Positions 4,309 through 61,423 of a stretch of DNA of 64,000 nt are shown here, in pieces. The translations under genes were made by a program, and so were the position numbers. The first letter of the stretch is position 1. Each line of letters begins with the position of its first letter. Below the pieces are notes generated by a model. It was not told the DNA's origin and did no database searches. It saw only the letters and a list, made by a program, of their open reading frames with translations. The stretch covers positions 10,358-74,357 of the forward strand of contig CAZWNZ010000001.1 in NCBI GenBank assembly GCA_964635715.1, given 5' to 3'. The stretch is from an uncultured Gammaproteobacteria bacterium (lineage in GTDB: Bacteria; Patescibacteriota; Microgenomatia; UBA8517).

Positions 4309-4689
4309 CTACCAAATTTCCGCTATTACTTCCCCTCCCGTTCTGTCTTTTATTGCCTTCAAAGATGATGTGACTCCTTTGGGAGTTGAAACAAGATAAA
4401 CTGAAGGTCCTCTTTTCTTTTCAAGTTCTTCAGTACCCATGTAAATTCTTAGACCTGGTTTTGAAACAAGTTTAAGATTCATCAATCTTGGACTTTTGTT
4501 TTTGAATGTCAAAGTTACGGTCAAAATTCCTTTTTCGTTTTTAACTGTGTCAACAAACCCCATTTTCTTTAGAGTTTCAGCAATAGCAACAAGTTTCTTG
4601 TTAGATTTAACAGTGACTTCCCTGTTTCCCGCCATTGCAACATTTTTGATTCTTATTAAAAAGTCTCCGATTGAGTAATTAGTATTCAT
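4309..4689 (-). CDS. rpsH: 30S ribosomal protein S8
   Basis: DFLIRIKNVAMAGNREV...GGEVIAEIW S8 termini. Confidence 0.93.
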   Translation of the reverse strand: MNTNYSIGDFLIRIKNVAMAGNREVTVKSNKKLVAIAETLKKMGFVDTVKNEKGILTVTLTFKNKSPRLMNLKLVSKPGLRIYMGTEELEKKRGPSVYLVSTPKGVTSSLKAIKDRTGGEVIAEIW

Positions 4690-5783: not shown

Positions 5784-5810
5784 ATTCTTAATAATTACCA
5801 ATACTACCAA

Positions 5811-5911
5811 TAAGTACCAATTTCAAATTTCCAATTAATTGGGTATTTGTATTTATTTGATTATTGGTGTTCATTGGTATTTTTTTACCACGTCATCGTG
5901 GCAAGCTTTGC
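5811..5911. repeat. imperfect ~95-bp palindromic intergenic element (copy I) between rplX and rplN
   Basis: Left arm attaccaatactaccaataagtaccaatttcaaatttccaat pairs with right arm attgggtatttgtatttatttgattattggtgttcattggtattttt. Homologous to the element at 7347-7441. Confidence 0.7.
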
Positions 5912-6859: not shown

Positions 6860-6872
6860 AATGCTTTGGCTT

Positions 6873-6909
6873 TATATAAAATTCATCTTCATGCAAACTT
6901 GTTTGCATA
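6873..6909 (-). promoter_or_regulatory. conserved palindrome (TGCAAACTTGTTTGCA) plus TATATA-box element 14 nt upstream of rpmC; copy A of 3
   Basis: tatataaaattcatcttcatgcaaacttgtttgcata; compare 35995-36033 and 44716-44752. Confidence 0.5.
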
Positions 6910-6926
6910 ATTCTTCTGACAGAATT

Positions 6927-7346: not shown

Positions 7347-7441
7347 TGTTCAATTTCAAATAAATACCAATTTCAAATTCCAAATTTCCAAAACGAAGTT
7401 TGTTACGTATTGGGAATTTGTATTTATTGGTTTATTGGTAC
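7347..7441. repeat. imperfect ~95-bp palindromic intergenic element (copy II) between rpsC and rplP
   Basis: Arm aaataaataccaatttcaaattccaaatttccaa pairs with arm attgggaatttgtatttattggtttattggtacttatt. Shares ccaataagtaccaat and caaat/ccaat blocks with 5811-5911. Confidence 0.7.
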
Positions 7442-8095
7442 TTATTGTTCTCCTTTCTTGTGTATCCACACCTTAACTCCCACATACCCTCTTTTCAAAA
7501 GGGCCGGAAATTGTGCATAATCTATTTCTTCTCTCAATGTCTGAGACGGAACTGATCCCTGATGAAACTTTTCAACTCGGGAAATTTCTGCTCCATTTAT
7601 ACGTCCTGCCAATACAACTTTTATACCCAATGCCCCTCCTGCCATAACTCTTTCGATTGCCTTCTGAACGGCACGCCTATGAGGAATCCTTCGCTCCATC
7701 TCTCCGGCTATTCTTTCTGCTACTAAACATGCCGAAAGTTCGGGATTTTTAACTTCGTTAATTCTTATATCGATTTTTATATCTTTGATACTTTTACCAC
7801 GGGCTTTACTCATTATTTCCAATATGTATCTTTTAACATCTTCTATACCTGTTCCACCGCGTCCGATAACCACACCGGGTCTACTTACGGTTATAATAAC
7901 AACTATACTTTTTGGCAATCTTTCGATTTCAACAGCCGTAACTCCTGCAAGTTTAAGTCTTTTTGTTAACTCCTGACGAATTTTTATATCTTCAACCAAA
8001 AAGTTCTTAAAGTTTGCAGGGTCAGCAAACCACCTTGATTTCCAGGGAAGGTAGCTACCAATTCTTATACCGGTCGGGTTAACTTTTTGTCCCAT
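7442..8095 (-). CDS. rpsC: 30S ribosomal protein S3
   Basis: MGQKVNPTGIRIG...KH domain; operon position. Confidence 0.94.
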   Translation of the reverse strand: MGQKVNPTGIRIGSYLPWKSRWFADPANFKNFLVEDIKIRQELTKRLKLAGVTAVEIERLPKSIVVIITVSRPGVVIGRGGTGIEDVKRYILEIMSKARGKSIKDIKIDIRINEVKNPELSACLVAERIAGEMERRIPHRRAVQKAIERVMAGGALGIKVVLAGRINGAEISRVEKFHQGSVPSQTLREEIDYAQFPALLKRGYVGVKVWIHKKGEQ

Positions 8096-10674: not shown

Positions 10675-11490
10675 TTAAGCTTGTGCTTGTTCTTCAGTTT
10701 TGGCTGCTTCCGGTTTTGACTCTTCTTTAACCTCTTGTCCTTCACCTTTTACACCCTCTTCTGCCGGAGCTTCGCCTTCAACCACCTGTGCTATCACTTC
10801 TTTTTCAAGATCTTTCAAGCTACCTGATTTAATTCTTTTAATCGTTACCATGGATCCTGTGGTGCCGGGAATTTGTCCCGAAATTTCAATTGTATTTGTT
10901 TTTTCATCGACTGAAATTATGTGCAAATTTTTGATGGTAACAGTCTCTCCACCCATTCTTCCAGCCATTTTTTTGCCTTTATAGACTCTTCCCGGTGTCG
11001 TAGTCTGCCCGATTGATCCCGGAGCACGTTCACGATCGCTTTGTCCATGGGTTCTTGGCCCACCTCTAAAGTGCCATCTTTTGACAACTCCTGCAAAACC
11101 TTTCCCCTTAGAAGTTCCTGTGACGGCAACAATGTCTCCGCGCTTTAATACTTCGGCAGCATTGACAATATCTCCAACTTTAAGAGCGGAACCTGTTACG
11201 GATTCCGGTTCTTTCTCAAGCCTAACCTCTCTAAGATATCTCGGGAATGAATTTGGAATTTGGAATTTGGAATTTGGAATTTTTTTGAGGTGTCCTTGAA
11301 GGGGTTTTGAAGTATTTTTTGCAGGCCTATCTGAAAATCCGAGCTGAATTGCCCAGTATCCGTCGCGTTCCTCTTTTTTAATTTGTGTCACGACACAAGG
11401 GCCCGCAATTACTTTTGTAACGGGAATCCTAAAACCTTGAACAAAGGTTTGTGAACATATTCCTTTCGATCCTAAAATAGTATTAATCAT
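10675..11490 (-). CDS. rplC: 50S ribosomal protein L3 with loop insertion encoded by a heptanucleotide repeat and an acidic C-terminal tail
   Basis: TGTSKGKGFAGVVKRWHFRGGPRTHGQS...APGSIGQTTTPGRVYKGKKMAGRMG L3 core. Insertion KIPNSKFQIPNSFPRY lies in the loop equivalent to E. coli AGVEAGRGLWEF. Confidence 0.92.
   Translation of the reverse strand: MINTILGSKGICSQTFVQGFRIPVTKVIAGPCVVTQIKKEERDGYWAIQLGFSDRPAKNTSKPLQGHLKKIPNSKFQIPNSFPRYLREVRLEKEPESVTGSALKVGDIVNAAEVLKRGDIVAVTGTSKGKGFAGVVKRWHFRGGPRTHGQSDRERAPGSIGQTTTPGRVYKGKKMAGRMGGETVTIKNLHIISVDEKTNTIEISGQIPGTTGSMVTIKRIKSGSLKDLEKEVIAQVVEGEAPAEEGVKGEGQEVKEESKPEAAKTEEQAQA
11251..11282. repeat. (atttgga)x4.5 heptanucleotide microsatellite inside the rplC coding sequence
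   Basis: atttggaatttggaatttggaatttggaattt encodes IPNSKFQIPNS on the minus strand. Confidence 0.85.
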
Positions 11491-11570: not shown

Positions 11571-11674
11571 CCCTGAAGCCATCCTTTCAAAGACTCTTAA
11601 TCGTGGCTAGTGTTTATCATAACCACTATCATGTTATGAGGGGAATTATATCAGAACTTCTTGAGCTCCGCAAG

Positions 11675-15504: not shown

Positions 15505-15568
15505 AGGTATATATTGTATTACTTACTTTTCTAACTTACAAGAGTTAATTTCTCTTGCCCAAGATTGA

Positions 15569-15598
15569 ATTATACTCGAGGCTAAATAGGCATGTCAA
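15569..15598 (-). promoter_or_regulatory. sigma70-type promoter for tuf (TTGACA-N18-TATAAT on minus strand)
   Basis: Minus-strand cTTGACAtgcctatttagcctcgagTATAATtca; -35 at 15593-15598, -10 at 15569-15574. Confidence 0.55.
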
Positions 15599-15639
15599 GA
15601 ACTAATAATGTCTAACAATTTTGATTATAAGTTCGTAGA

Positions 15640-17808: not shown

Positions 17809-17896
17809 ATCAGTTTGAATCTAGAATCTTGAATGTGGAATCTAGAGGACAAGAGTGATTTTAACAGGAGATTGAATCTAAATCAATAACAGATGA

Positions 17897-18330
17897 TTAA
17901 AATTTTCTATTTACTAGATGCCTATCTGTGTAAATAAGAACGTTTTGACCTTTGAAATTTAGATTATCTCTCTTTACTTTGAAACCTTGATTTTTTGCAT
18001 AATCAATTAGTGATTCTAACCAATTTACATTTGGTTTTTTAACTAAGGGTTCATCAATTACACAACAGGGTCAACCACGGTTACATCCCAGCCGTTTATA
18101 TTTAACAAAAGTGAAAGCAATCCTTTTCCACCACCAACATCTAAGGCTTTGGTGGGTTTGTATTTTTGGCTAAGCCACATCTGTAAAAGCTGAAAACGAA
18201 ACTTGTTGTTCAATCTTCGTTTTGTATTCATTAATCGGATTATACATTTTTTTAAATAATGAATTATATTATCTATTTTAATATTAATTAGTTCGATGGT
18301 TCGAACTATGGTACTATAAATATATGACAC
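17897..18330 (-). pseudogene. class I SAM-dependent methyltransferase remnant, frameshifted after motif I
   Basis: ORF 18058-18330 ends ...ALDVGGGKGLLSLLLNINGWDVTVVDPVV* (motif I). A second frame continues DEPLVKKPNVNWLESLIDYAKNQGFKVKRDNLNFKGQNVLIYTD... to a stop at 17897-17899. Confidence 0.45.
18289..18309. repeat. 21-bp direct repeat, 5' copy flanking TrpR-like gene 2 (8-4-8 dyad tagttcga-tggt-tcgaacta)
   Basis: tagttcgatggttcgaactat, identical to 18765-18785. Confidence 0.85.
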
Positions 18331-18767
18331 AAGTTTCTAGACATTTTATGAATCCTGATATTGAAAAGCGAGTTTATGAGGTATTTATAGAATCTGTTAA
18401 AAACACCAGAAATTCAAATGAAGTAATTGATTTTTTAAATGACTTACTTTCCCCTGTCGAAAAAATTATGATGGCAAAAAGAGTGGCCGTCGCATTTCTT
18501 TTACTTCAGGATAAATATACCTATGACCAAATTTCCAAAACCGTAAAGGTTAGTAGGGGTACAATTGCAAAAATTCATACCACTTTTGCTCTACAAGGAA
18601 AGGGGTATAGAAAAATTCTGGGAGATATTCTTAAAAGGAAAGTTGCGAAAATTGCATTATCGGAACTATTAGACGCGATAACTCTTCTTCCTCCAAAAGG
18701 TGCAAATCTTGGAGAATGGAAAAAGATGAAACGAAATGACAAATTAAAGAGAGAAAGTCCAATATAG
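18324..18767 (+). CDS. TrpR/YerC-like helix-turn-helix DNA-binding protein (paralogue 2 of 3)
   Basis: FLNDLLSPVEKIMMAKRVAVAFLLLQDKYTYDQISKTVKVSRGTIAKI (TrpR helix pattern). Confidence 0.6.
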   Translation: MTQVSRHFMNPDIEKRVYEVFIESVKNTRNSNEVIDFLNDLLSPVEKIMMAKRVAVAFLLLQDKYTYDQISKTVKVSRGTIAKIHTTFALQGKGYRKILGDILKRKVAKIALSELLDAITLLPPKGANLGEWKKMKRNDKLKRESPI

Positions 18768-26892: not shown

Positions 26893-26972
26893 TATGTTTG
26901 GAAATTAAAACAACTAAAGACCCGCCACCATGAAGCGAGACGAGCGTACCATTCACGTACGCCTAAGATGGG

Positions 26973-27000
26973 ATTATACCTATATTTTCTCCTTTGTCAA
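26973..27000 (-). promoter_or_regulatory. consensus sigma70 promoter for rpoB (TTGACA-N16-TATAAT), about 75-nt leader
   Basis: Minus-strand cTTGACAaaggagaaaatataggTATAATccc; -35 at 26995-27000, -10 at 26973-26978. Confidence 0.6.
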
Positions 27001-27117
27001 GGACAAAAAGTTACCAGTAATCAGTTATTAGTAACCAGTCAGTTAATAAAGTGGCTAAGTTACTTAGAAACTGAATTACTAACTGATTATTGAATACTGG
27101 TCAACTATTCAACTTTT

Positions 27118-28277: not shown

Positions 28278-28423
28278 TCTAATAAATTATACCATGAAGC
28301 GCTCTAGGTCAAGCTGATAAAACCTTTGGACACAAACCGAGCCCTAAACAGAAAATCATCAACACCAAAAAAGTGTGAATCAAATCTGCCTAGGGCTCGT
28401 AAAACTATTCAAATCAAAGAGAG

Positions 28424-30034: not shown

Positions 30035-30121
30035 AAATTAGTATTTAGTAGTTAGAAATTAGAAACTAGATCTGGAATGTATTTTAGCAGTTCCTAACTA
30101 CTAACTTCTAGATTCCAACTC

Positions 30122-33153: not shown

Positions 33154-35001
33154 TTAGCTTTTAATTAAAGCGGCATATATTCTAATAATTCCTGCTCCAA
33201 TTTTCTCTTGTTTAATTATTCTAACATCCCCAATCTCACCTGTGCGAGTAACATGTGGTCCACCACACACTTCTCGACTGAAAGGAGATCCTGAGCGAGC
33301 TTCGCGAGTCGAAGGACCGATTGAATACACTTTTACTTCTTTTCCGTATTTTTCTGCAAAGAAGTGCATTGCGCCCAACTTTATTGCATCGGATAAACTC
33401 ATTGTAGTAAAACTCACTGGCAAATCTTCTTTTATCTTTTTATTCATCAGGTCCTCAACTTCTCCGACCTCTTCATCTGTAAGCTTTTGTGGATGAGAAA
33501 AATCAAATCTTAATCTTTCTGCAGTAATATGACTTCCTTTTTGTCCAACATGTTCACCCAACACTTCTCTTAGTGCCGCCTGCAATAAATGTGTAGCTGT
33601 ATGTAGTTTTGTAGTAACAATAGACGCCTCAGACAGTCCCCCCTTAAACATTCCAGCAGATGCACTTCTTGAGGCATCTTTGTGTTTTTCAAATTCCGTT
33701 TCAAAGGCATTTTTTTCTTCAGGAGAGAAACTAAAGCCATTTTGTTTTAGAATTTCTATAGTCAGCTCAAGGGGAAACCCTTCGGTTTGATAAAGATCAA
33801 AAGCGAATTCTCCATTAATTAATTTCCCGTCATTTACAGCTTTCGTTAATTTTCCAAGTCCCCGCTTTAATGCTGCTTCAAAACGAGTTGCCTCAGTTGT
33901 TAGATTCTCCTCAATAAATTGCCAATTTTTATCTACGTTGGGATAAAACTTTCTATACTCTTCTGCAATATGTGCGATAGCAAGCCCAGAAATTCCAGAT
34001 CCTAAAAGGTGAAAGTGAAACATTGCGCGCCTGATGAGTCTTCTTAATGCATAACCTTGAAGTTTGTTGCTTGGAACAACTCCCTCAGCAAGTAAATTTG
34101 TTGATGCCCGAAGGTGGTCTGCAATAATTCTAAAACTCCTATCTTTACTAGAGTCCGTGGAATAAGCTGTCCCAACTTCTTTTTCGATTTTTTGAATAAC
34201 ACCGATAAACATATCGATTTTGAAAACGTCTGGATTATCAACTAGAGCTGCTGCTGCTCGCTCCAGTCCGCCCCCAAAATCAACATTTTTTTGAGGAAGT
34301 TCTTTTAGAGACCCGTCCTCCATTTTTTGGTACTGCACAAACACTGAATTTCCTATTTCTAAAAATTTTCCACAGTCACAATTGGGATGGCAGAAGTCAC
34401 CAAACTTTGGGTCGTGGGGAACGTCGGTAAATTCATAAAAAATTTCACTATCAGGACCACCTATTTCTCCCGCTGGCATATTTGAGGGGACGCCAGCCCT
34501 ACTCCACCAATTTTTTTCTGGTCCATAAAAATGAATATGGGTTTCGGGAACACCCAGACCTTTCCATATTTCAAAAGATTCAGTGTCTTTTGGAACACCG
34601 TCTGTTCCTTCAAAAACGCTTACGTGTAGTCTTTCAGGAGAGATCCCTAATTCTTTTGTATAAAATTCCCACACAAAGGCAAGTTGTTCTTTTTTGAAAT
34701 AATCTCCCAAGCTCCAGTTGCCAAGCATTTCAAAAAAAGTTATGTGACGATTGTCCCCAACTTCCTCAAGATCCTGAAGCCTTAGTGAGGGTTGAGAATC
34801 TGTAAGTCTTACTCCTTCAGGATGTTTTTCCCCTTTCAAAAAAGGGACCAGTTGTTGCATTCCACTACTTGTAAAAAGGGTCGTTGGATCCCCTTCAATA
34901 ATAAGTGGGCTTGGAATAATTTCTTTATGTCCCTGCTTTTTAAAAAACTCTAAATATTTTTTCCTAATCTCTGTTGTAGTCATGGCTAAAGTATAGTACA
35001 A
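33154..35001 (-). CDS. alaS: alanine--tRNA ligase (catalytic and editing domains; C-Ala domain absent)
   Basis: N-terminus EIRKKYLEFFKKQGHKEIIPSPLI...LFTSSGM; editing motif HTATHLLQAAL...; 615 aa. True start probably MTTTEIR (ATG rc 34981-34983). Confidence 0.9.
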   Translation of the reverse strand: MYYTLAMTTTEIRKKYLEFFKKQGHKEIIPSPLIIEGDPTTLFTSSGMQQLVPFLKGEKHPEGVRLTDSQPSLRLQDLEEVGDNRHITFFEMLGNWSLGDYFKKEQLAFVWEFYTKELGISPERLHVSVFEGTDGVPKDTESFEIWKGLGVPETHIHFYGPEKNWWSRAGVPSNMPAGEIGGPDSEIFYEFTDVPHDPKFGDFCHPNCDCGKFLEIGNSVFVQYQKMEDGSLKELPQKNVDFGGGLERAAAALVDNPDVFKIDMFIGVIQKIEKEVGTAYSTDSSKDRSFRIIADHLRASTNLLAEGVVPSNKLQGYALRRLIRRAMFHFHLLGSGISGLAIAHIAEEYRKFYPNVDKNWQFIEENLTTEATRFEAALKRGLGKLTKAVNDGKLINGEFAFDLYQTEGFPLELTIEILKQNGFSFSPEEKNAFETEFEKHKDASRSASAGMFKGGLSEASIVTTKLHTATHLLQAALREVLGEHVGQKGSHITAERLRFDFSHPQKLTDEEVGEVEDLMNKKIKEDLPVSFTTMSLSDAIKLGAMHFFAEKYGKEVKVYSIGPSTREARSGSPFSREVCGGPHVTRTGEIGDVRIIKQEKIGAGIIRIYAALIKS

Positions 35002-35089
35002 ATTGAATCTAGAATATAGAATTTCGAATTCAGTTAAAAAACCGCAGACAGAAAAGGCTTCTTTTTTCCTAGATTCCAGATTCTAATTA

Positions 35090-35350: not shown

Positions 35351-35974
35351 CTAGTTTCTGACATTTATTTTGCGCGAAACTGTTGTTGTCTTGCCACTTC
35401 TGGATTGAGCAACAATCGTTATTTCTTCAGCACTGTCAGCAATCTCTATATTAACAGAAAATTTACCATCTTCATCTACCAATACCGGTTGATTGTCGAC
35501 GGTAATCTTAACATCTACATCCGTTGAACCAAAAACTAAAACCGAGTCACCAGCTATAATCTGTCCTTCTACAGGACTCACCACATTTATACTTGGAGGT
35601 GAAACAAATTTTTTATACTGGAAACCCAAATACCCAAGAATGAAAATAACAACAAGAGCAATTCCCAAAATAAACGTAATTCTGGGATTCCATGACTGTT
35701 TTGACGAGATATCAGGCTTAGGATTGATATTTGTTTTTGTTAAAGTGTAGTCCCGTTTAAGAATTGCTGTAGCCGTAGCTTCATCCACATCCAAGGCCGA
35801 AGCAATACTTTTAACGAATCCCAAAACAGTAGGAAAAGGCGGAAGCACCTGCCAATTTTCGTTTTCCAGATCTTTGATAAATGAAGCTTTAATTTTAGTA
35901 ATTTCCTCAAGCTTTTCGTAAGAGTACTTCTTTTCTTTTCGGGCACTAATAATTATTTGGCCAATTTTTCTCAT
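35351..35974 (-). CDS. rodZ: RodZ-like membrane protein with N-terminal helix-turn-helix
   Basis: IKASFIKDLENENWQVLPPFPTVLGFVKSIASALDVDE (RodZ HTH pattern), TM at ~residue 100, C-terminal beta domain. Confidence 0.6.
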   Translation of the reverse strand: MRKIGQIIISARKEKKYSYEKLEEITKIKASFIKDLENENWQVLPPFPTVLGFVKSIASALDVDEATATAILKRDYTLTKTNINPKPDISSKQSWNPRITFILGIALVVIFILGYLGFQYKKFVSPPSINVVSPVEGQIIAGDSVLVFGSTDVDVKITVDNQPVLVDEDGKFSVNIEIADSAEEITIVAQSRSGKTTTVSRKINVRN

Positions 35975-35994
35975 GCTTTAAACTTGTTTAAAAT

Positions 35995-36033
35995 ATATAA
36001 AACTTATCCTCTTATTGCAAACTTGTCTGCACG
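35995..36033 (-). promoter_or_regulatory. conserved palindrome (TGCAAACTTGTCTGCA) plus TATATA-box element 20 nt upstream of rodZ; copy B of 3
   Basis: tatataaaacttatcctcttattgcaaacttgtctgcac. Confidence 0.5.
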
Positions 36034-36136
36034 ATTCTACCAATTAAGTTTTATATAATATAAAAAACCTTATAAAATTCACCCTATTGTAGACTTGCTC
36101 ACATAAATTCCTGGTAGAATTTCATATTACAATTCC

Positions 36137-40637: not shown

Positions 40638-40655
40638 AAAATTGATCCTAAATAC

Positions 40656-40679
40656 TACATTACTATATAGTAATGTAGT
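40656..40679. repeat. perfect 24-bp palindrome ctacattactat|atagtaatgtag, same family as those flanking TrpR-like gene 3; orphan copy 16 nt upstream of the udg start
   Basis: Compare cttcaatactatatagtattgaag (49195-49218) and ctacaatactatatagtattgtag (49676-49699). Confidence 0.8.
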
Positions 40680-42227: not shown

Positions 42228-42353
42228 AATTTTTAATTATCAATTATCAATTTACATTGAATTTACAATGAATTCAATTTCCAAACGATTTGAAAATTTA
42301 AAAAATGAAAATTTGTTGAAAATTGCAAACTGAAAACTGAAAATTACTTTTGT

Positions 42354-44696: not shown

Positions 44697-44715
44697 AATT
44701 TAAATTTATTTAAGT

Positions 44716-44752
44716 TATATAAAACTTATCTTCTTGCAAATTTATTTGCATA
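44716..44752 (-). promoter_or_regulatory. conserved palindrome (TGCAAATTTATTTGCA) plus TATATA-box element 20 nt upstream of pnp; copy C of 3
   Basis: tatataaaacttatcttcttgcaaatttatttgcata. Confidence 0.5.
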
Positions 44753-44788
44753 ACATTAGTGACAAAGTTTTATATTATTATTCAATTT

Positions 44789-47580: not shown

Positions 47581-47680
47581 AGTTTTATTTATTCTAAAAG
47601 TAAGAATCTAGTAGCTAGAAGTTAGTAGCTAGGAGTATCAAAAAGTTTGAAGGTGAAAAAATAATTTGATAGTTTTCATT

Positions 47681-48878: not shown

Positions 48879-49194
48879 AAATCAAATACTCAATTCCAGA
48901 TACAAGTTTAACTCATTAAAGCTAAAAACTCAAGCTACATAAGTAAGTTAATTTTGAGTATTAGTCTTCCCGAACATCTGCTGAAGTTCTTTTTCCGTCG
49001 GGTTTCTTTTTTCCTATTCACATTTTTTCATTAACCTGCAAATAGGACAGTCATCAATAATACAATTATTGCTTGATACCATAATGGCGTCACCTACTTT
49101 TTTACTGGATGTTTTCATCCTACCGTTTATAAATTTATATCATTCAAATCTGCAAATATTCAAGTGATTATTTTTATGATATATTGAATATATA

Positions 49195-49218
49195 CTTCAA
49201 TACTATATAGTATTGAAG
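49195..49218. repeat. perfect 24-bp palindrome cttcaatactat|atagtattgaag, 4 nt upstream of the TrpR-like gene 3 start
   Basis: Self-complementary by inspection. Confidence 0.85.
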
Positions 49219-49222
49219 TGCT

Positions 49223-49672
49223 ATGACTAAAATTTCAAAATTGCCATTAAGATCTGATGTTTGGAATCGGATTTTTGATTTGTTCGTCAGTACCCTATCC
49301 AACCAAAGAGATAAAAAGAAATTATCAAATTTTATTAATGATTTTTTCTCGCCAACTGAAAGAATAATGTTTGCAAAAAGGTTGGCTATTGCGGTTCTGG
49401 TCGCAAAAGGCCAAGATTATCAAAGTATCCACGAAATTTTGAAAGTAAGTCCACCAACTATTGCAAAACTTAGTTTAAGAATCAAATATATGGGGGAGGG
49501 TTTAAACCCTGTTATTAGAGATATTTTTAAGAGTCAGGCGTTGCAAATTATATGGAAAGAAACTGAAGATCTGTTTGATTTGCCAACAAAAGGTAACTTA
49601 AAATCGCCCGAAAGATTTAAAAGAAAACTTCGAAGAGTGAAGCAAATTAATAAAATGAGATCGGAATTTTAA
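49223..49672 (+). CDS. TrpR/YerC-like helix-turn-helix DNA-binding protein (paralogue 3 of 3)
   Basis: FINDFFSPTERIMFAKRLAIAVLVAKGQDYQSIHEILKVSPPTIAKL. Confidence 0.6.
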   Translation: MTKISKLPLRSDVWNRIFDLFVSTLSNQRDKKKLSNFINDFFSPTERIMFAKRLAIAVLVAKGQDYQSIHEILKVSPPTIAKLSLRIKYMGEGLNPVIRDIFKSQALQIIWKETEDLFDLPTKGNLKSPERFKRKLRRVKQINKMRSEF

Positions 49673-49675
49673 CTA

Positions 49676-49704
49676 CTACAATACTATATAGTATTGTAGT
49701 TTTT
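49676..49704 (+). terminator. perfect 24-bp palindrome ctacaatactat|atagtattgtag plus TTTTT; 3' copy of the gene-3 flanking repeat and probable terminator
   Basis: Begins 3 nt after the TAA stop; followed by ttttt at 49700-49704. Confidence 0.6.
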
Positions 49705-60826: not shown

Positions 60827-61423
60827 ATGAAAAAACCTGTTAGCAAAATCGGAACAATTTTAATAATAATAGCCACAGTCATTCTGGCTGGAATTGCGAT
60901 TTTTACAGCCTACAGATTGTATCAACTTAGACAAACCTCTGTCGCACCTAATGTTCCCAGCAGCATGCCAAAGGCTGAAGAATCAACTGCAAGCCCTGCT
61001 CCCACTAGCAATTGTTCCCTATCGTTTACCATATCGACATCCACTCCTACCACTACAGCCACAGCTACAGCTACTGCAACAGCCACAGCAACTGCGACGG
61101 CTACAGCTACTGCAACAGCCACGCCAACTTCATCCGGTACTCCGAACTCTTGCGGTGGAACTTGTGGAAGTAATACTAATTGTGGATCAGGTCTTTACTG
61201 TTATAACGGTTACTGTCGTAATCCATCGTGTTCTAATGAAATAGATTGTGTCTGTCCGACAGGCACCTCTACGGCCACAGCAACTGCGACAGCAAAAAGT
61301 TCCACCCCAACTTCTACACCTGAAGAAGTCACTCTTCCCGAGTCAGGTACAGGCTGGACGACTTTCATGGGTATCGGAGTCGGAATGTTGGTTGTTCTAG
61401 GATCAATTCTTTTAGCTCTCTAA
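60827..61423 (+). CDS. cell-surface protein with (Thr-Ala)n repeat, small Cys-knot module and C-terminal LPESG sorting signal
   Basis: TTATATATATATATATATATATATPT; CGGTCGSNTNCGSGLYCYNGYCRNPSCSNEIDCVCP; C-terminus EEVTLPESGTGWTTFMGIGVGMLVVLGSILLAL. Confidence 0.65.
   Translation: MKKPVSKIGTILIIIATVILAGIAIFTAYRLYQLRQTSVAPNVPSSMPKAEESTASPAPTSNCSLSFTISTSTPTTTATATATATATATATATATATATPTSSGTPNSCGGTCGSNTNCGSGLYCYNGYCRNPSCSNEIDCVCPTGTSTATATATAKSSTPTSTPEEVTLPESGTGWTTFMGIGVGMLVVLGSILLAL

Follow-up and report, generated by a model that had tools for sequence, protein, structure and literature searches.

The 95-nt spacer between rpsC and rplP in the window (the whole stretch of DNA analyzed here, 64 kb in length) is occupied by an imperfect, A+T-rich palindrome, designated copy II, which we regard, with a probability of about 0.5, as a vertically inherited and selectively maintained member of a low-copy palindromic-repeat family that would act as an intercistronic RNA hairpin. 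A second member, copy I, lies in the rplN-rplX spacer, and the host of both copies is an uncultured Microgenomates (CPR) bacterium. On the best reading of the data, the family is new, low in copy number, built from 8- to 10-base units, and at home in Microgenomates-group CPR bacteria. The central observation is that copy II is ∼8-fold less changed than the neighboring synonymous sites when compared with its ortholog in the nearest sampled relative, and the sequence comparison suggests that it is either old and conserved or else was reinserted very precisely.

Architecture and predicted folding of copy II

The sequence and the open reading frames (ORFs) place the rpsC-rplP spacer exactly at positions 7347 to 7441 of the minus strand, between the rpsC stop codon (7442 to 7444) and the rplP ATG (7346 to 7344). 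The initial annotation had described a palindromic element in this spacer, and its interval indeed coincides with the exact spacer and contains three complementary arm pairs. Inverted-repeat search gave 7359-7378/7409-7428 (20 nt, 85% complementary) and 7376-7395/7406-7425 (20 nt, 80%), while the pair 7359-7371/7434-7446 (13 nt, 92%) prolongs the stem as far as the stop codon of rpsC. The parts of copy II are as follows.

7347-7441, minus strand: copy II, the entire rpsC-rplP spacer (ORFs; homology with copy I; 104-nt ortholog in L091/L092)
7442-7444, minus strand: rpsC stop codon TAA, paired inside the hairpin base (13-nt arm pair, ORFs, fold)
7409-7446, minus strand: 5' arm in mRNA sense, AATAAGTACCAATAAACCAATAAATACAAATTCCCAAT (inverted-repeat pairs, folds, family alignment)
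7393-7408, minus strand: apex module, ACGTAACAAACTTCGT (in the L091 ortholog; missing from copy I)
7359-7392, minus strand: 3' arm in mRNA sense, TTTGGAAATTTGGAATTTGAAATTGGTATTTATT (inverted repeats, folds, alignment)
7347-7358, minus strand: unpaired 12-nt tail from the hairpin to the rplP ATG, TGAAATTGAACA (sequence, L091 comparison)

The arms are degenerate unit arrays, AATAARTACC-like on the 5' side and complementary to this on the 3' side, and copy II is palindromic throughout, with outermost arms of 13 nt and the 16-nt apex as its sole distinct core. The 5' arm, a nearly G-free array of 8- to 10-nt AATAARTACC-type units, begins with the final rpsC codon together with the stop, and the 3' arm contains GGAATTT heptamer units resembling those of the rplC repeat (described below). 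In a relative (L075), the apex module takes the form ACGTAACAAAGTTACG, which pairs better than that of copy II. The tail has the same 12-nt length in copies I and II and is devoid of a Shine-Dalgarno motif in copy II (7347 to 7358). Copy II, which is 95 nt long at 26% G+C and devoid of any credible ORF, has the size and composition of a MITE (50 to 500 bp, noncoding, A+T rich).

The predicted RNA fold of copy II in mRNA sense has an energy of −17.4 kcal/mol (z = −2.0), or −22.7 kcal/mol with nine rpsC bases added, versus −20.0 kcal/mol (z = −2.6) for the opposite strand, and copy I folds at −19.8 kcal/mol (z = −2.66). Considering these modest z-scores, the structure of copy II is just moderately above chance for such a composition. 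Because the antisense folds are equal or better, the mRNA copies show no G-U signature pointing to sense-RNA selection, and fold energy is uninformative as to their selected strand; the orientation of the palindrome relative to transcription is uninformative as well, because the CCAAT-rich arm leads on either strand. The rRNA copies of the family (described below) fold at −29 and −32 kcal/mol in sense, versus −18 and −20 kcal/mol in antisense.

Copy II would be transcribed within the ribosomal-protein polycistron, where its A+U-rich imperfect hairpin would fill the entire spacer; with the rpsC stop codon in its base and 12 nt from its end to the rplP AUG, the hairpin would keep the two cistrons effectively near each other. 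Judged by the analogy of REP, ERIC, and Correia elements, copy II would most likely act as an intercistronic RNA stem-loop, which might serve as an RNase III-type double-strand-specific processing site or as a barrier to 3' exonucleases. Such a stem-loop could split the long S10-spc transcript into segments whose relative stabilities it would set; since ribosomal proteins are required in equal amounts, a differential-stability device in this operon would be without obvious benefit.

Homology of the two spacers and likeness to the rplC repeat

Copy I, a differently structured member of the family, is located 1.5 kb downstream of copy II. The features concerned are as follows.

5796-5879, minus strand: copy I hairpin, 84 nt, in the rplN-rplX spacer (alignment, fold of −19.8 kcal/mol, empty relatives)
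5784-5795, minus strand: copy I tail, 12 nt, from the hairpin to the rplX ATG (sequence)
5885-5911, minus strand: older, separate rplN-rplX module, GCAAAGCTTG plus the G+C hairpin CCACG-ATGA-CGTGG (common to L035)
11244-11281, minus strand: in-frame heptamer repeat of rplC, (ATTCCAA)4 in sense, encoding KIPNSKFQIPNSF (sequence, alignment)

Local alignment of the copy I spacer (5784 to 5911) with copy II scored 67, versus 21.2 ± 3.9 (maximum, 40) for 2,000 dinucleotide-preserving shuffles and at most 32 for the remaining spacers of the window, which were used as natural controls. The proposal that the two spacers hold copies of one element was thus upheld, while the outcome named beforehand as its refutation, a likeness no better than that of random A+T-rich DNA, failed to appear, the shuffles and the other spacers both scoring lower; chance likeness is ruled out and copies I and II are homologous. 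Consistently, blastn-short matched copy II to copy I with one hit per arm (E = 2e−5 and 3e−4), the aligned identity of the two copies is 90%, and the 15-mer CCAATAAGTACCAAT occurs four times with up to two mismatches, all inside the two spacers (0.16 expected). These two copies are the only ones that blastn-short, nhmmer, and a motif-cluster scan detected in the 64-kb window. The module at 5885 to 5911, of which L066 has a compensatory version, lies outside the repeat element.

The sharing of a ttccaaatt block by copies I and II was not borne out, as the exact block is found in copy II and rplC but not in copy I. A link to the rplC repeat had also been suggested, and the part of it that stands is the heptamer units that rplC has in common with copy II: the two aligned with a score of 47 versus 18.5 ± 3.2 (0 of 1,000 shuffles reaching it), and the match to copy I was weaker (28 versus 17.0 ± 2.7; 2 of 1,000 shuffles). 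This likeness is a match of low-complexity units. The encoded KIPNSKFQIPNSF occupies an RplC loop of variable length that holds differing tandem repeats in differing lineages, which points to a general repeat-prone process and falls short of proving common descent with copy II.

Insertion history and conservation

Among ∼100 related loci, the rpsC-rplP and rplN-rplX gaps are almost all 0 to 37 bases long, which identifies copies I and II as lineage-specific insertions and agrees with the earlier claim that both had been inserted. Where both genes could be placed in metagenome loci, the rpsC-rplP gap was ≤26 nt in 59 of 66, and the copy II element was found in none; the nearer relatives have gaps of 5, 12, 17, 22, and 37 nt at this junction. 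In relatives lacking copy I, the rplN-rplX gap amounts to 9 nt (L017), 36 nt (L035, which falls outside the L091 lineage), and 11 nt (L098). An RplX search and two look-ups found no ortholog of copy I, only other hairpins or empty sites.

A neighbor-joining tree built from RpsC plus RplP pairs the window with L091 as its sister, and copy II is confined to this pair. L091, the nearest sampled relative (94% in RpsC), has an orthologous copy II of 104 nt, and this ortholog is represented by two independent samples (L091 and L092). Relative to L091, copy II shows five substitutions in 95 aligned nt, two of which are the last two bases of the tail, plus an indel of one 9-nt unit, while 63 of 144 fourfold-degenerate sites in the flanking genes differ (44%); the argument for selection is drawn from this one orthologous pair. 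Third codon positions within 150 nt on each side differ by 36 to 38%, and no co-converted flanks were seen in the same 150 nt on either side. Such divergence is at odds with recent activity of copy II, which the initial annotation had suspected. Changes fell on ∼4 of 41 unpaired positions and on 1 of 54 paired positions; since the unpaired positions are conserved too, a sequence-specific partner fits better than a mere hairpin. Moreover, distant family copies keep the 5' arm and have a 3' arm of variable length, indicating that pairing is not the sole constraint.

One insertion in an ancestor most simply accounts for the apex and both junctions being common to the window and L091, and the comparisons indicate that the element probably entered an rpsC-rplP gap of formerly 5 to 12 nt in the ancestor that the two share. 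L087, a distant host, carries a related copy at rpsC-rplP with a similar 3' end, AATTGAAC, so that a separate precise insertion in two lineages is conceivable. In addition, the sister lineage L098 has an unrelated palindrome at the rpsC-rplP junction, and L091 has an extra palindrome in rplV-rpsC.

The family in other genomes

Scanning 185,000 genomes with a pattern derived from the ribosomal-operon copies revealed relatives in several Gottesmanbacteria, one Chisholmbacteria genome, and a further genome of the Patescibacteria, the exact matches elsewhere numbering one or two per genome. Members of the family occupy other intra-operon junctions, helix tips of 16S rRNA, and surface loops of proteins. 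Family copies lie in the rpsK-rpsD spacer of L090 and the atpD-atpC spacer of L083, and others fall within a promoter region or within coding genes. The cmscan alignment shows the L084 16S rRNA gene to have 139 nt instead of 3 nt around model position 832 and 149 nt instead of 4 nt around position 1157, the latter site holding 110 nt in L085; like an intervening sequence (IVS), these copies put an extended hairpin where the rRNA helix would have its terminal loop. In L086, the SufC protein bears a 15-residue in-frame insert, KIITTNKPINTNKYQ, encoded by a CCAATAA array and absent from the solved SufC chains 2d2e and 2d3w, and a second in-frame family insert is probable in a PBP2-like protein. 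In-frame insertion into conserved genes, the mark of Rickettsia palindromic elements (RPEs), is thus a property of the family and not of copy II itself.

The two family copies within the L084 16S rRNA gene are identical at 105 of 106 positions, near-identical paralogs that show the family to be capable of making new copies of itself. The left arm of copy I matches L087 at 41 of 44 positions, L090 at 40 of 44, and copy II at 32 of 39, with an RplP identity of just 64% between the host of copy I and that of the L087 and L090 copies. The presence of copies at differing sites in other Microgenomates/Patescibacteria genomes supports the view that the repeat family has moved. Thus, the initial annotation's notion of a mobile repeat family is borne out by the copies at other sites, while its wording "active or recently active" is unfit for copy II.

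Within ∼570 kb of related loci, blastn-short, nhmmer, and the motif-cluster scan found no copy beyond the pattern hits; the relative in L075 fell below nhmmer significance and was recognized by a 13-mer and a 10-mer in the same order. With two copies in 64 kb and none but the pattern hits in ∼570 kb, a high-copy dispersed repeat is excluded. Viral contigs yielded zero family matches, and a phage vector was set aside on this ground. Full-text searches of the CPR literature returned no description of such repeats.

Comparison with known classes of element

No intrinsic terminator (G+C-rich stem plus T run) was found in 7347 to 7446 or 5784 to 5911 by a scan that recovered a canonical terminator at 11573 to 11545, and the minus strand of either spacer contains no sigma-70-type promoter (TTGACA, 16 to 18 nt, TATAAT), the total of promoter-like sites equaling the shuffle expectation. 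An internal promoter or intrinsic terminator is ruled out for both spacers, which have no consensus site. Close TTGACA-N17-TATAAT matches were seen by eye in the spacers 15505 to 15639, 26893 to 27117, and 28278 to 28423. A known RNA family is ruled out as well, since no part of the window matched Rfam 15 at the gathering score and only chance-level matches (E = 1 to 8) were obtained around the two spacers.

Comparison of filled with empty sites gave no clear direct repeat that could be a target-site duplication, and the element boundaries are not fixable because the left junction is always AATAA(A/G)T, which resembles the repeat unit. No transposase is obvious among the ORFs of the 64-kb window, which look like housekeeping genes by their inspected N-terminal sequences. 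Copy II departs from REP/REPIN elements in its 26% G+C, its two copies in 64 kb, and its one or two exact pattern matches per genome. It agrees with ERIC-like elements in being an imperfect palindrome of ∼100 nt, in its transcribed spacers, in its polymorphic presence, and in a sequence that is kept across species.

In phage T4 gene 38, a hairpin brings a Shine-Dalgarno motif near the AUG. Restoration of such proximity is unsupported as the main role here: the 3' end of rpsC contains AAAGGAG, yet this lies ∼15 nt plus the helix end from the rplP AUG, the ancestral Shine-Dalgarno motif of copy I is 128 nt and two hairpins away, and relatives with a 36-nt spacer are already without a nearby motif.

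Alternative explanations

A purely selfish, still-active, nonautonomous mobile element of the MITE or REPIN kind, favoring a few conserved junctions, is a possible though unlikely explanation, under which the likeness to L091 would reflect a recent precise independent insertion or master-copy constraint rather than host function. Patchy presence and absence in close relatives, the 99% identical paralogs within one 16S rRNA gene, an element tree in conflict with the host tree, the occupied junction in distant L087, the unrelated palindrome of L098 at the same junction and the extra one in rplV-rpsC of L091 all agree with it, as do the rRNA and in-frame SufC insertions, such as promiscuous selfish DNA would show. 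However, the idiosyncratic 16-nt apex and both junctions are common to the window and L091, copies are few (two in 64 kb; one or two pattern matches per genome), viral contigs are without matches, and neither a target-site duplication in the available comparisons nor an obvious transposase among the window ORFs (N-terminal sequences) was recognized. An origin in place, by slippage amplifying a seed to tandem units and template switching making the inverted arm, cannot yield the 91 to 93% identity of a complex 44-nt arm in hosts at 64% RplP identity, nor the 90% identity of the two window copies, and we consider it very unlikely, even though spacers of the window and its relatives often hold palindromes of differing 7- to 10-nt units, the tandem repeat of the rplC loop differs lineage by lineage, and copy II differs from its ortholog by exactly one 9-nt unit. 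Slippage accounts for array change after insertion, not for the source of the family.

Slightly more doubtful again is a DNA-level binding array of CCAAT/ATTGG boxes ∼10 bp apart, through which a regulator or nucleoid protein would control transcription of the ribosomal-protein cluster. The 8- to 10-bp spacing of the units, the conservation of the whole sequence including RNA-unpaired bases, and the conservation of 5' arm sequence, not pairing, between distant genomes are all compatible with it, and TrpR-like paralogs are encoded at 1554 to 1976, 18324 to 18767, and 49223 to 49672; naming one of these three proteins, which lie on the opposite strand beside translation operons, as the ligand is pure conjecture. 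The 16S rRNA and in-frame SufC copies are hard to square with an operator role, and there is no promoter-like site in or beside the element. The conservation of copy II and the rRNA copies that fold far better in the sense strand, as a selected RNA should, also suit an autoregulatory mimic, a hairpin that would serve both as an rRNA expansion segment and as a ribosomal-protein mRNA decoy for one bound protein and so couple their syntheses. Five of nine family hits of the unbiased genome scan, and both window copies too, fall in 16S rRNA or ribosomal-protein junctions, but the pattern came from ribosomal-operon copies and several hits are mutually nonindependent; moreover, rRNA and mRNA copies were never seen within one genome, other copies lie in the ATP synthase operon, a promoter region, and coding genes, and no Rfam ribosomal-protein leader matched, making this the least probable of the readings. 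Scarcely better is the chance that a mobile palindrome was repeatedly recruited as a portable regulatory RNA, placed at 16S helix tips as an expansion segment and within the polycistrons for ribosomal proteins and ATP synthase as a decoy; if true, one hairpin-binding protein would couple ribosomal-protein output to rRNA and ribosome assembly in CPR bacteria.

Significance and relation to known systems

Mobile DNA is usually said to be scarce in the small, tightly packed genomes of CPR/Patescibacteria. Here, a single repeat family underlies expanded junctions within the cell's most conserved operon, extended hairpins at 16S helix tips, and short in-frame inserts in essential proteins, with at least one copy kept nearly unchanged amid 44%-diverged synonymous sites. 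This offers a testable handle on the spread of such elements among uncultured bacteria and on a processing or regulatory role of hairpins in ribosomal-protein operons. In practice, the insertions alter the spacer and rRNA lengths used for annotating and binning these lineages.

In cyanobacterial STRRs (short tandemly repeated repetitive heptamer arrays), intergenic DNA carries 7-nt units in tandem, some of them of the CCCCAAT type. The present family resembles them in its tandem intergenic heptamers; they differ in belonging to another phylum and in being chiefly tandem arrays with no conserved palindrome of defined complex sequence. REP/BIME/REPIN elements are, like this family, extragenic imperfect palindromes inside operons, and the long hairpin from two inverted parts is REPIN-like. 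REP RNA hairpins protect upstream mRNA and tune expression within an operon; REPs are G+C rich, 20 to 40 nt long, present in hundreds per genome, and linked with a RAYT (Y1 transposase) gene. The present element, in contrast, has 26% G+C and two copies in 64 kb, and inspection of the N-terminal ORF sequences of the window revealed no RAYT.

Correia elements of Neisseria and other MITEs share with the family their small size, noncoding and A+T-rich nature, and hairpin formation upon cotranscription. The defining hallmarks of MITEs, namely terminal inverted repeats flanking a nonpalindromic core, target-site duplications, and a parent insertion sequence, were not demonstrable for the family of copy II. 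RNase III cleaves Correia transcripts (PMC10969869), and a work in the reference list of that review describes the MITE Chunjie as sitting within an operon that it leaves unbroken. Rickettsia palindromic elements likewise inhabit a reduced genome, between genes and in frame within conserved proteins (PMC10969869). Comparable here are the 15-residue SufC insert, the probable PBP2-like insert, and the repeat-encoded RplC loops. RPEs are about 100 to 150 bp long and encode a conserved peptide, whereas the coding copies here are one-armed arrays only, and the sequences are unrelated.

Classical IVSs are found mainly in 23S helices 25 and 45. The L084 and L085 copies are like IVSs in turning 16S terminal loops into extended hairpins of 110 to 149 nt. 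Tsurumaki et al. (2024) reported many short (<200 bp), uncharacterized rRNA insertions in CPR bacteria that are neither introns nor ORF bearing (PMC11270868), a report that draws no tie between these and repeats in mRNA spacers. The ERIC/IRU elements of enterobacteria (127-bp imperfect palindromes) parallel the family as palindromes of ∼100 nt in transcribed spacers, often intra-operon, present or absent at orthologous sites, of low to moderate copy number, with the sequence kept and no known transposase. They belong to another phylum and are unrelated in sequence, whereas here the arms gain and lose whole 8- to 10-nt units and members also occupy the tips of rRNA helices and in-frame positions within proteins. 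The resemblance to ERIC elements, which affect mRNA decay (PMC10969869), is functional only, without sequence relationship.

Structure and genomic setting of copy II

The 95 nt that separate the rpsC stop codon from the rplP ATG corresponded exactly to 7347-7441 (26% G+C) and formed an imperfect palindrome with three arm pairs, two of 20 nt (85% and 80% complementary) and one of 13 nt (92%), the last and outermost of which extends to 7446 and takes in the rpsC stop codon. The palindromic element proposed for this spacer was thus confirmed, and in mRNA sense it is composed as follows.

5' arm: (AATAA)GTACCAATAAACCAATAAATACAAATTCCCAAT, nearly G-free
Apex: ACGTAACAAACTTCGT, 16 nt
3' arm: TTTGGAAATTTGGAATTTGAAATTGGTATTTATT
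Tail: TGAAATTGAACA, 12 nt, preceding the AUG

The predicted mRNA fold reached -17.4 kcal/mol (z = -2.0); adding the end of rpsC lowered this to -22.7 kcal/mol. The opposite strand folded equally well. Considering this modest z value and the equal antisense fold, the hairpin is real but weak and is not singled out by pairing alone.

The genes around copy II make up a closely packed ribosomal-protein cluster and are all on the minus strand, in the following order.

Minus strand: rplC, rplD, rplW, rplB, rpsS, rplV, rpsC, rplP, rpmC, rpsQ, rplN, rplX, rplE, rpsN, rpsH, rplF, rplR, rpsE, rplO

In the window, rpmD was absent between rpsE and rplO, and a lack of L30 has been reported for CPR bacteria (PMC7143001). 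The closest named homologs of RpsC and RplX belong to Candidatus Microgenomates or Microgenomates-group bacteria, and the identical sequence was also recovered in an independent Logan assembly (L001). Moreover, the minus strand holds nearly all genes of the window, and the plus strand shows strong and uniform skews over most of the 64 kb (GC, about -0.1 to -0.3; AT, down to -0.23), a strand disparity similar to that known from a complete Microgenomates genome (PMC7143001).

Copies I and II as insertions of one element

Copy I, the 128-nt rplN-rplX spacer (5784-5911), aligned to copy II along both arms with a local score of 67, far above the random A+T-rich level (21.2 ± 3.9, maximum 40, in 2000 dinucleotide-preserving shuffles), and other intergenic regions of the window scored at most 32 against either copy, indicating that the two spacers are homologous. 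Their common sequence reads ACCAATAA.C.AATAAATACAAAT.CCCAAT followed by AATTTGAAATTGGTA.TTATT, and the apex module is not in copy I. Copy I lacks the TTCCAAATT block that the initial annotation considered shared by the two copies; the block is present in copy II, and rplC has four occurrences. No third copy was found in the 64-kb window.

To place these spacers among relatives, 80 metagenome loci with RplP relatives (62 to 93% identity) were fetched and all spacers from rplV to rplE were measured. The rpsC-rplP gap was at most 26 nt in 59 of the 66 loci in which both genes could be placed, and the rplN-rplX gap was at most 36 nt in 48 of 53; closer relatives, identified via RpsC, had rpsC-rplP gaps of 5, 12, 17, 22 and 37 nt. 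Together with the homology of the two spacers, these short gaps bear out the proposal of two insertions of one element, and on sequence comparison both copies are insertions. In one relative (L035), the rplN-rplX spacer is only 36 nt long, with GCAAAGCTTGCCACGATGACGTGGTAATAAAAAAAT equal to the first 27 nt of the window spacer and then leading straight to ATG. Those 27 nt (5885-5911), immediately 3' of rplN, comprise GCAAAGCTTG and a G+C hairpin, CCACG-ATGA-CGTGG, for which another relative (L066) carries a compensatory variant (CAACTT-AAG-AAGTTG). The L035 and L066 versions show that this small hairpin is older and separate and that the ~90 nt downstream of it are an addition. In L016, L021 and L031, GCAAAGCTT/GCGAAGCTT also opens the rpsC-rplP spacer.

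Neighbour-joining analysis of RpsC plus RplP placed the window and its nearest sampled relative (L091/L092) as sisters, and these were the sole carriers of copy II. The rpsC-rplP junction of L098, the next lineage on the tree, holds an unrelated palindrome (4411-4491) of 81 nt, made up of AAGGTAA units, and L091 carries a 77-nt palindrome (2211-2287) in rplV-rpsC, where the window has none. One 42-nt element (GAGTTTCGAGTTTCGAAATTCG...) occupies both rplV-rpsC and rpsQ-rplN in L027, and L058 and L059 have in common an AGAGC-rich palindrome in the ribosomal-protein operon. These varied short-unit palindromes show that the operon junctions have been invaded repeatedly in this clade. Motifs resembling GAATTTCGAAT also occur in L051, L059 and L077.

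Distribution and architecture of the family

A degenerate 25-nt pattern for the 5' arm, based on copy I, copy II and a related element in L075, was scanned against 185,579 species (one genome each) and matched 10 sites at 9 loci. A match in a Clostridia membrane-protein gene was apparently due to chance. The remaining hosts were three Candidatus Gottesmanbacteria genomes plus a fourth contig, one Chisholmbacteria, one "Patescibacteria group" and one Gammaproteobacteria-labelled bin, a label that may be wrong. Their sites are as follows.

L087: rpsC-rplP spacer, the junction of copy II; host RplP only 64% identical to that of the window
L090 (contig shared with L087): rpsK-rpsD spacer
L083: spacer from atpD to probable atpC
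L088: between divergent genes
L084, 341-520 and 791-980: two copies within the 16S rRNA gene
L085, 1-110: one copy within the 16S rRNA gene
L086, 1380-2168: in frame in SufC (Chisholmbacteria)
L082, 3639-5561: in frame in a PBP2-like protein (Gammaproteobacteria-labelled bin)

Against the Rfam model, L084 is expanded at two helix terminal loops, from 3 to 139 nt near position 832 and from 4 to 149 nt near 1157, and L085 has 110 nt at the second. The two L084 copies were identical at 105 of 106 positions, direct evidence that copying took place recently inside one genome. One of them has the flanks GAAGACTTT.AGA and ATCGTCG in common with the L085 copy, so the 16S rRNA inserts may themselves be composite units of larger size. 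Directly after the 16S gene, at L084 1415-1506, there is a match to group II intron D1-D4 (37 bits; gathering threshold, 35). In the coding copies, only the 5'-arm array is present, and the SufC insert (KIITTNKPINTNKYQ) falls at a gap position relative to solved SufC structures. The array-encoded peptide TTNKPINTN is in frame in both proteins, and the PBP2-like gene holds a second heptamer array (AATTCAA AATTAAG AATTCAG AATTGAG). No family copy was found in the viral contigs searched. In addition, rRNA and ribosomal-protein genes, ~2% of a genome, hold five of nine family sites plus both window copies, a strong enrichment that is only a lead, the pattern being ribosomal-operon derived and several matches non-independent.

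The family is built from 5'-side units (for example AATAAGTACC, AATAAATACC and AATAATCC) and 3'-side units (for example GGTATTTATT and GGATTATT), and copies differ mostly by whole units; copy II and its L091 ortholog, for instance, are one TACCAATAA unit apart. The 5' arm is far more conserved than the 3' arm, and the right arm of L087 is only ~16 nt. The copy I 5' arm matches L087 at 41/44 and L090 at 40/44 positions but copy II at only 32/39, a conflict between element and host trees that points to either inter-lineage movement or very strong sequence constraint.

The rplC repeat (11244-11281, minus strand) encodes KIPNSKFQIPNSF through (ATTCCAA)4, and close relatives are ~five residues shorter there; other tandem repeats occupy the same RplC loop in L050 ((CAAAACT)n), L062 (14-mer) and L018 (16-mer). 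This L3 loop is hypervariable, with lineage-specific in-frame tandem or palindromic repeats adding 5 to 17 residues (window, L018, L023/L024, L042, L046, L050 and L062). The suggested kinship with copy II holds at the level of alignment, as the copy II 3' arm carries complementary GGAATTT units and the score is significant (47 versus 18.5 ± 3.2). What these units establish is membership of one repeat-prone class of sequence; descent of the rplC insert from the palindrome is not proved by them.

Other repeats and motifs in the window

A second conserved spacer motif lies between rplP and rpmC (6860-6926), where the hairpin ATGCAAAC-AAG-TTTGCAT is followed ~12 nt on by TTTTATATAA. It differs from L091 at 4/67 positions (synonymous sites, ~40%), has a compensatory version in L093 (CGTGAAC-AAG-TTCACG) and a similar one in L005, and has paralogs (35975-36136 and 44697-44788) upstream of gene 35351-35974 and of a pnp-like gene (after rpsO). 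A non-canonical promoter/operator and an RNA element are both conceivable roles for it. Further intergenic palindromes (30035-30121, 34984-35089, 42228-42353, ~26990-27117, 17809-17850 and 47581-47680), mostly just downstream of genes, are made of different 7-nt units (GAATCTA, AGTTAGT, TTTTCAG, CAGTTAGTAAT and others); the one at ~27000 ends in a T run before an apparent canonical TTGACA/TATAAT promoter. These may be the lineage's long A+U-rich terminators or 3' hairpins.

Three small paralogous proteins (plus strand; 1554-1976, 18324-18767 and 49223-49672) run opposite to the general gene direction and adjoin translation operons. The first has a Pfam Trp_repressor match (in L001), and a shared conserved stretch (repeat family D5) is the only link between it and the others. 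Near-perfect palindromes of 27 to 31 nt (TACTACATTACTATATAGTAATGTAGT) flank gene 49223-49672 (49189-49219 and 49670-49700) and recur at 40649-40679. A 12-nt-periodic coding repeat (ACAGCNACAGCN...; Thr/Ala-rich, low complexity) lies at 61037-61306 within the plus-strand gene 60827-61423.

Sequence conservation and age of copy II

L091 and L092, from different samples, have an identical 104-nt spacer, from which the window differs by 5 substitutions over 95 aligned positions and one 9-nt indel. In the flanking genes, 93/654 positions of rpsC and 74/420 of rplP differ, as do 63/144 fourfold-degenerate sites. Third positions within 150 nt of the spacer differ at 18/50 before and 19/50 after it; ordinary synonymous divergence continues up to both junctions in the alignment, so a co-converted tract is absent. 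Three of the five changes fall at one stem mismatch (C·A to U·G beside a new G·A) and two are the final bases ahead of the AUG, with no change in the apex loop or internal loops.

The window and L091 copies might be precise independent re-insertions at a preferred site, in keeping with the occupation of the same junction by the distant L087 copy. Since they share both apex and junctions, orthology by descent is the more economical reading. If orthologous, copy II would evolve ~8 times more slowly than synonymous sites and would be under purifying selection. The "active or recently active" family of the initial annotation is therefore upheld for mobility and recent copying (L084), but copy II itself is old and conserved (5/95 versus 63/144). 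Overall, the initial interpretation is partly supported: the repeat family is real and there is evidence that it has moved, but copy II is old and conserved rather than recently inserted.

Possible function

No sigma-70-like promoter or terminator-like site was detected in either spacer, although the same scan recovered a canonical terminator upstream of rplC, and an internal promoter or terminator was rejected for both. Other window spacers have close TTGACA-N17-TATAAT matches by eye. Rfam gave no match, and a hairpin that rejoins a split ribosome-binding site fitted poorly. The element would lie within a transcription unit, its hairpin extending from the stop codon across the spacer and ending 12 nt short of the following AUG (the tail is equally long in both window copies), so that the cistrons would remain effectively adjacent and insertion into an essential operon would be tolerated. 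REP hairpins shield upstream mRNA. RNase III cleaves Correia elements, and ERIC elements change the decay of mRNA (PMC10969869). Given this RNA-level behaviour of comparable elements, we favour, and infer, a role for copy II as a hairpin for intercistronic mRNA processing or stability on which selection has come to act; the family's function and mechanism of spread we likewise infer. Two observations weaken this reading. Unpaired bases are conserved too, and the 5' arm is conserved more than the pairing is, a pattern that hints at a sequence-specific partner, protein or RNA. The mRNA copies showed no sense-strand G-U signature, whereas the rRNA copies are predicted to fold far better in sense (-29 and -32 kcal/mol) than in antisense (-18 and -20 kcal/mol).

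Comparison with known systems

Full-text literature searches turned up no account of palindromic intergenic repeats in CPR/Patescibacteria. Among the rRNA insertions of CPR bacteria, Tsurumaki et al. 2024 (PMC11270868) report many that are uncharacterised, lack an ORF and are short (<200 bp), and propose that some may be IVS-like; the present family identifies at least some of them and ties them to mRNA-spacer repeats. By type, the element falls among the small palindromic repeats represented by REP, ERIC, Correia and RPE. Whereas REPs are defined by high G+C content, high copy number and a RAYT, copy II has 26% G+C and the window two copies in 64 kb; MITEs are defined by target duplication and a parent insertion sequence, features on which the element is not assignable to that class.
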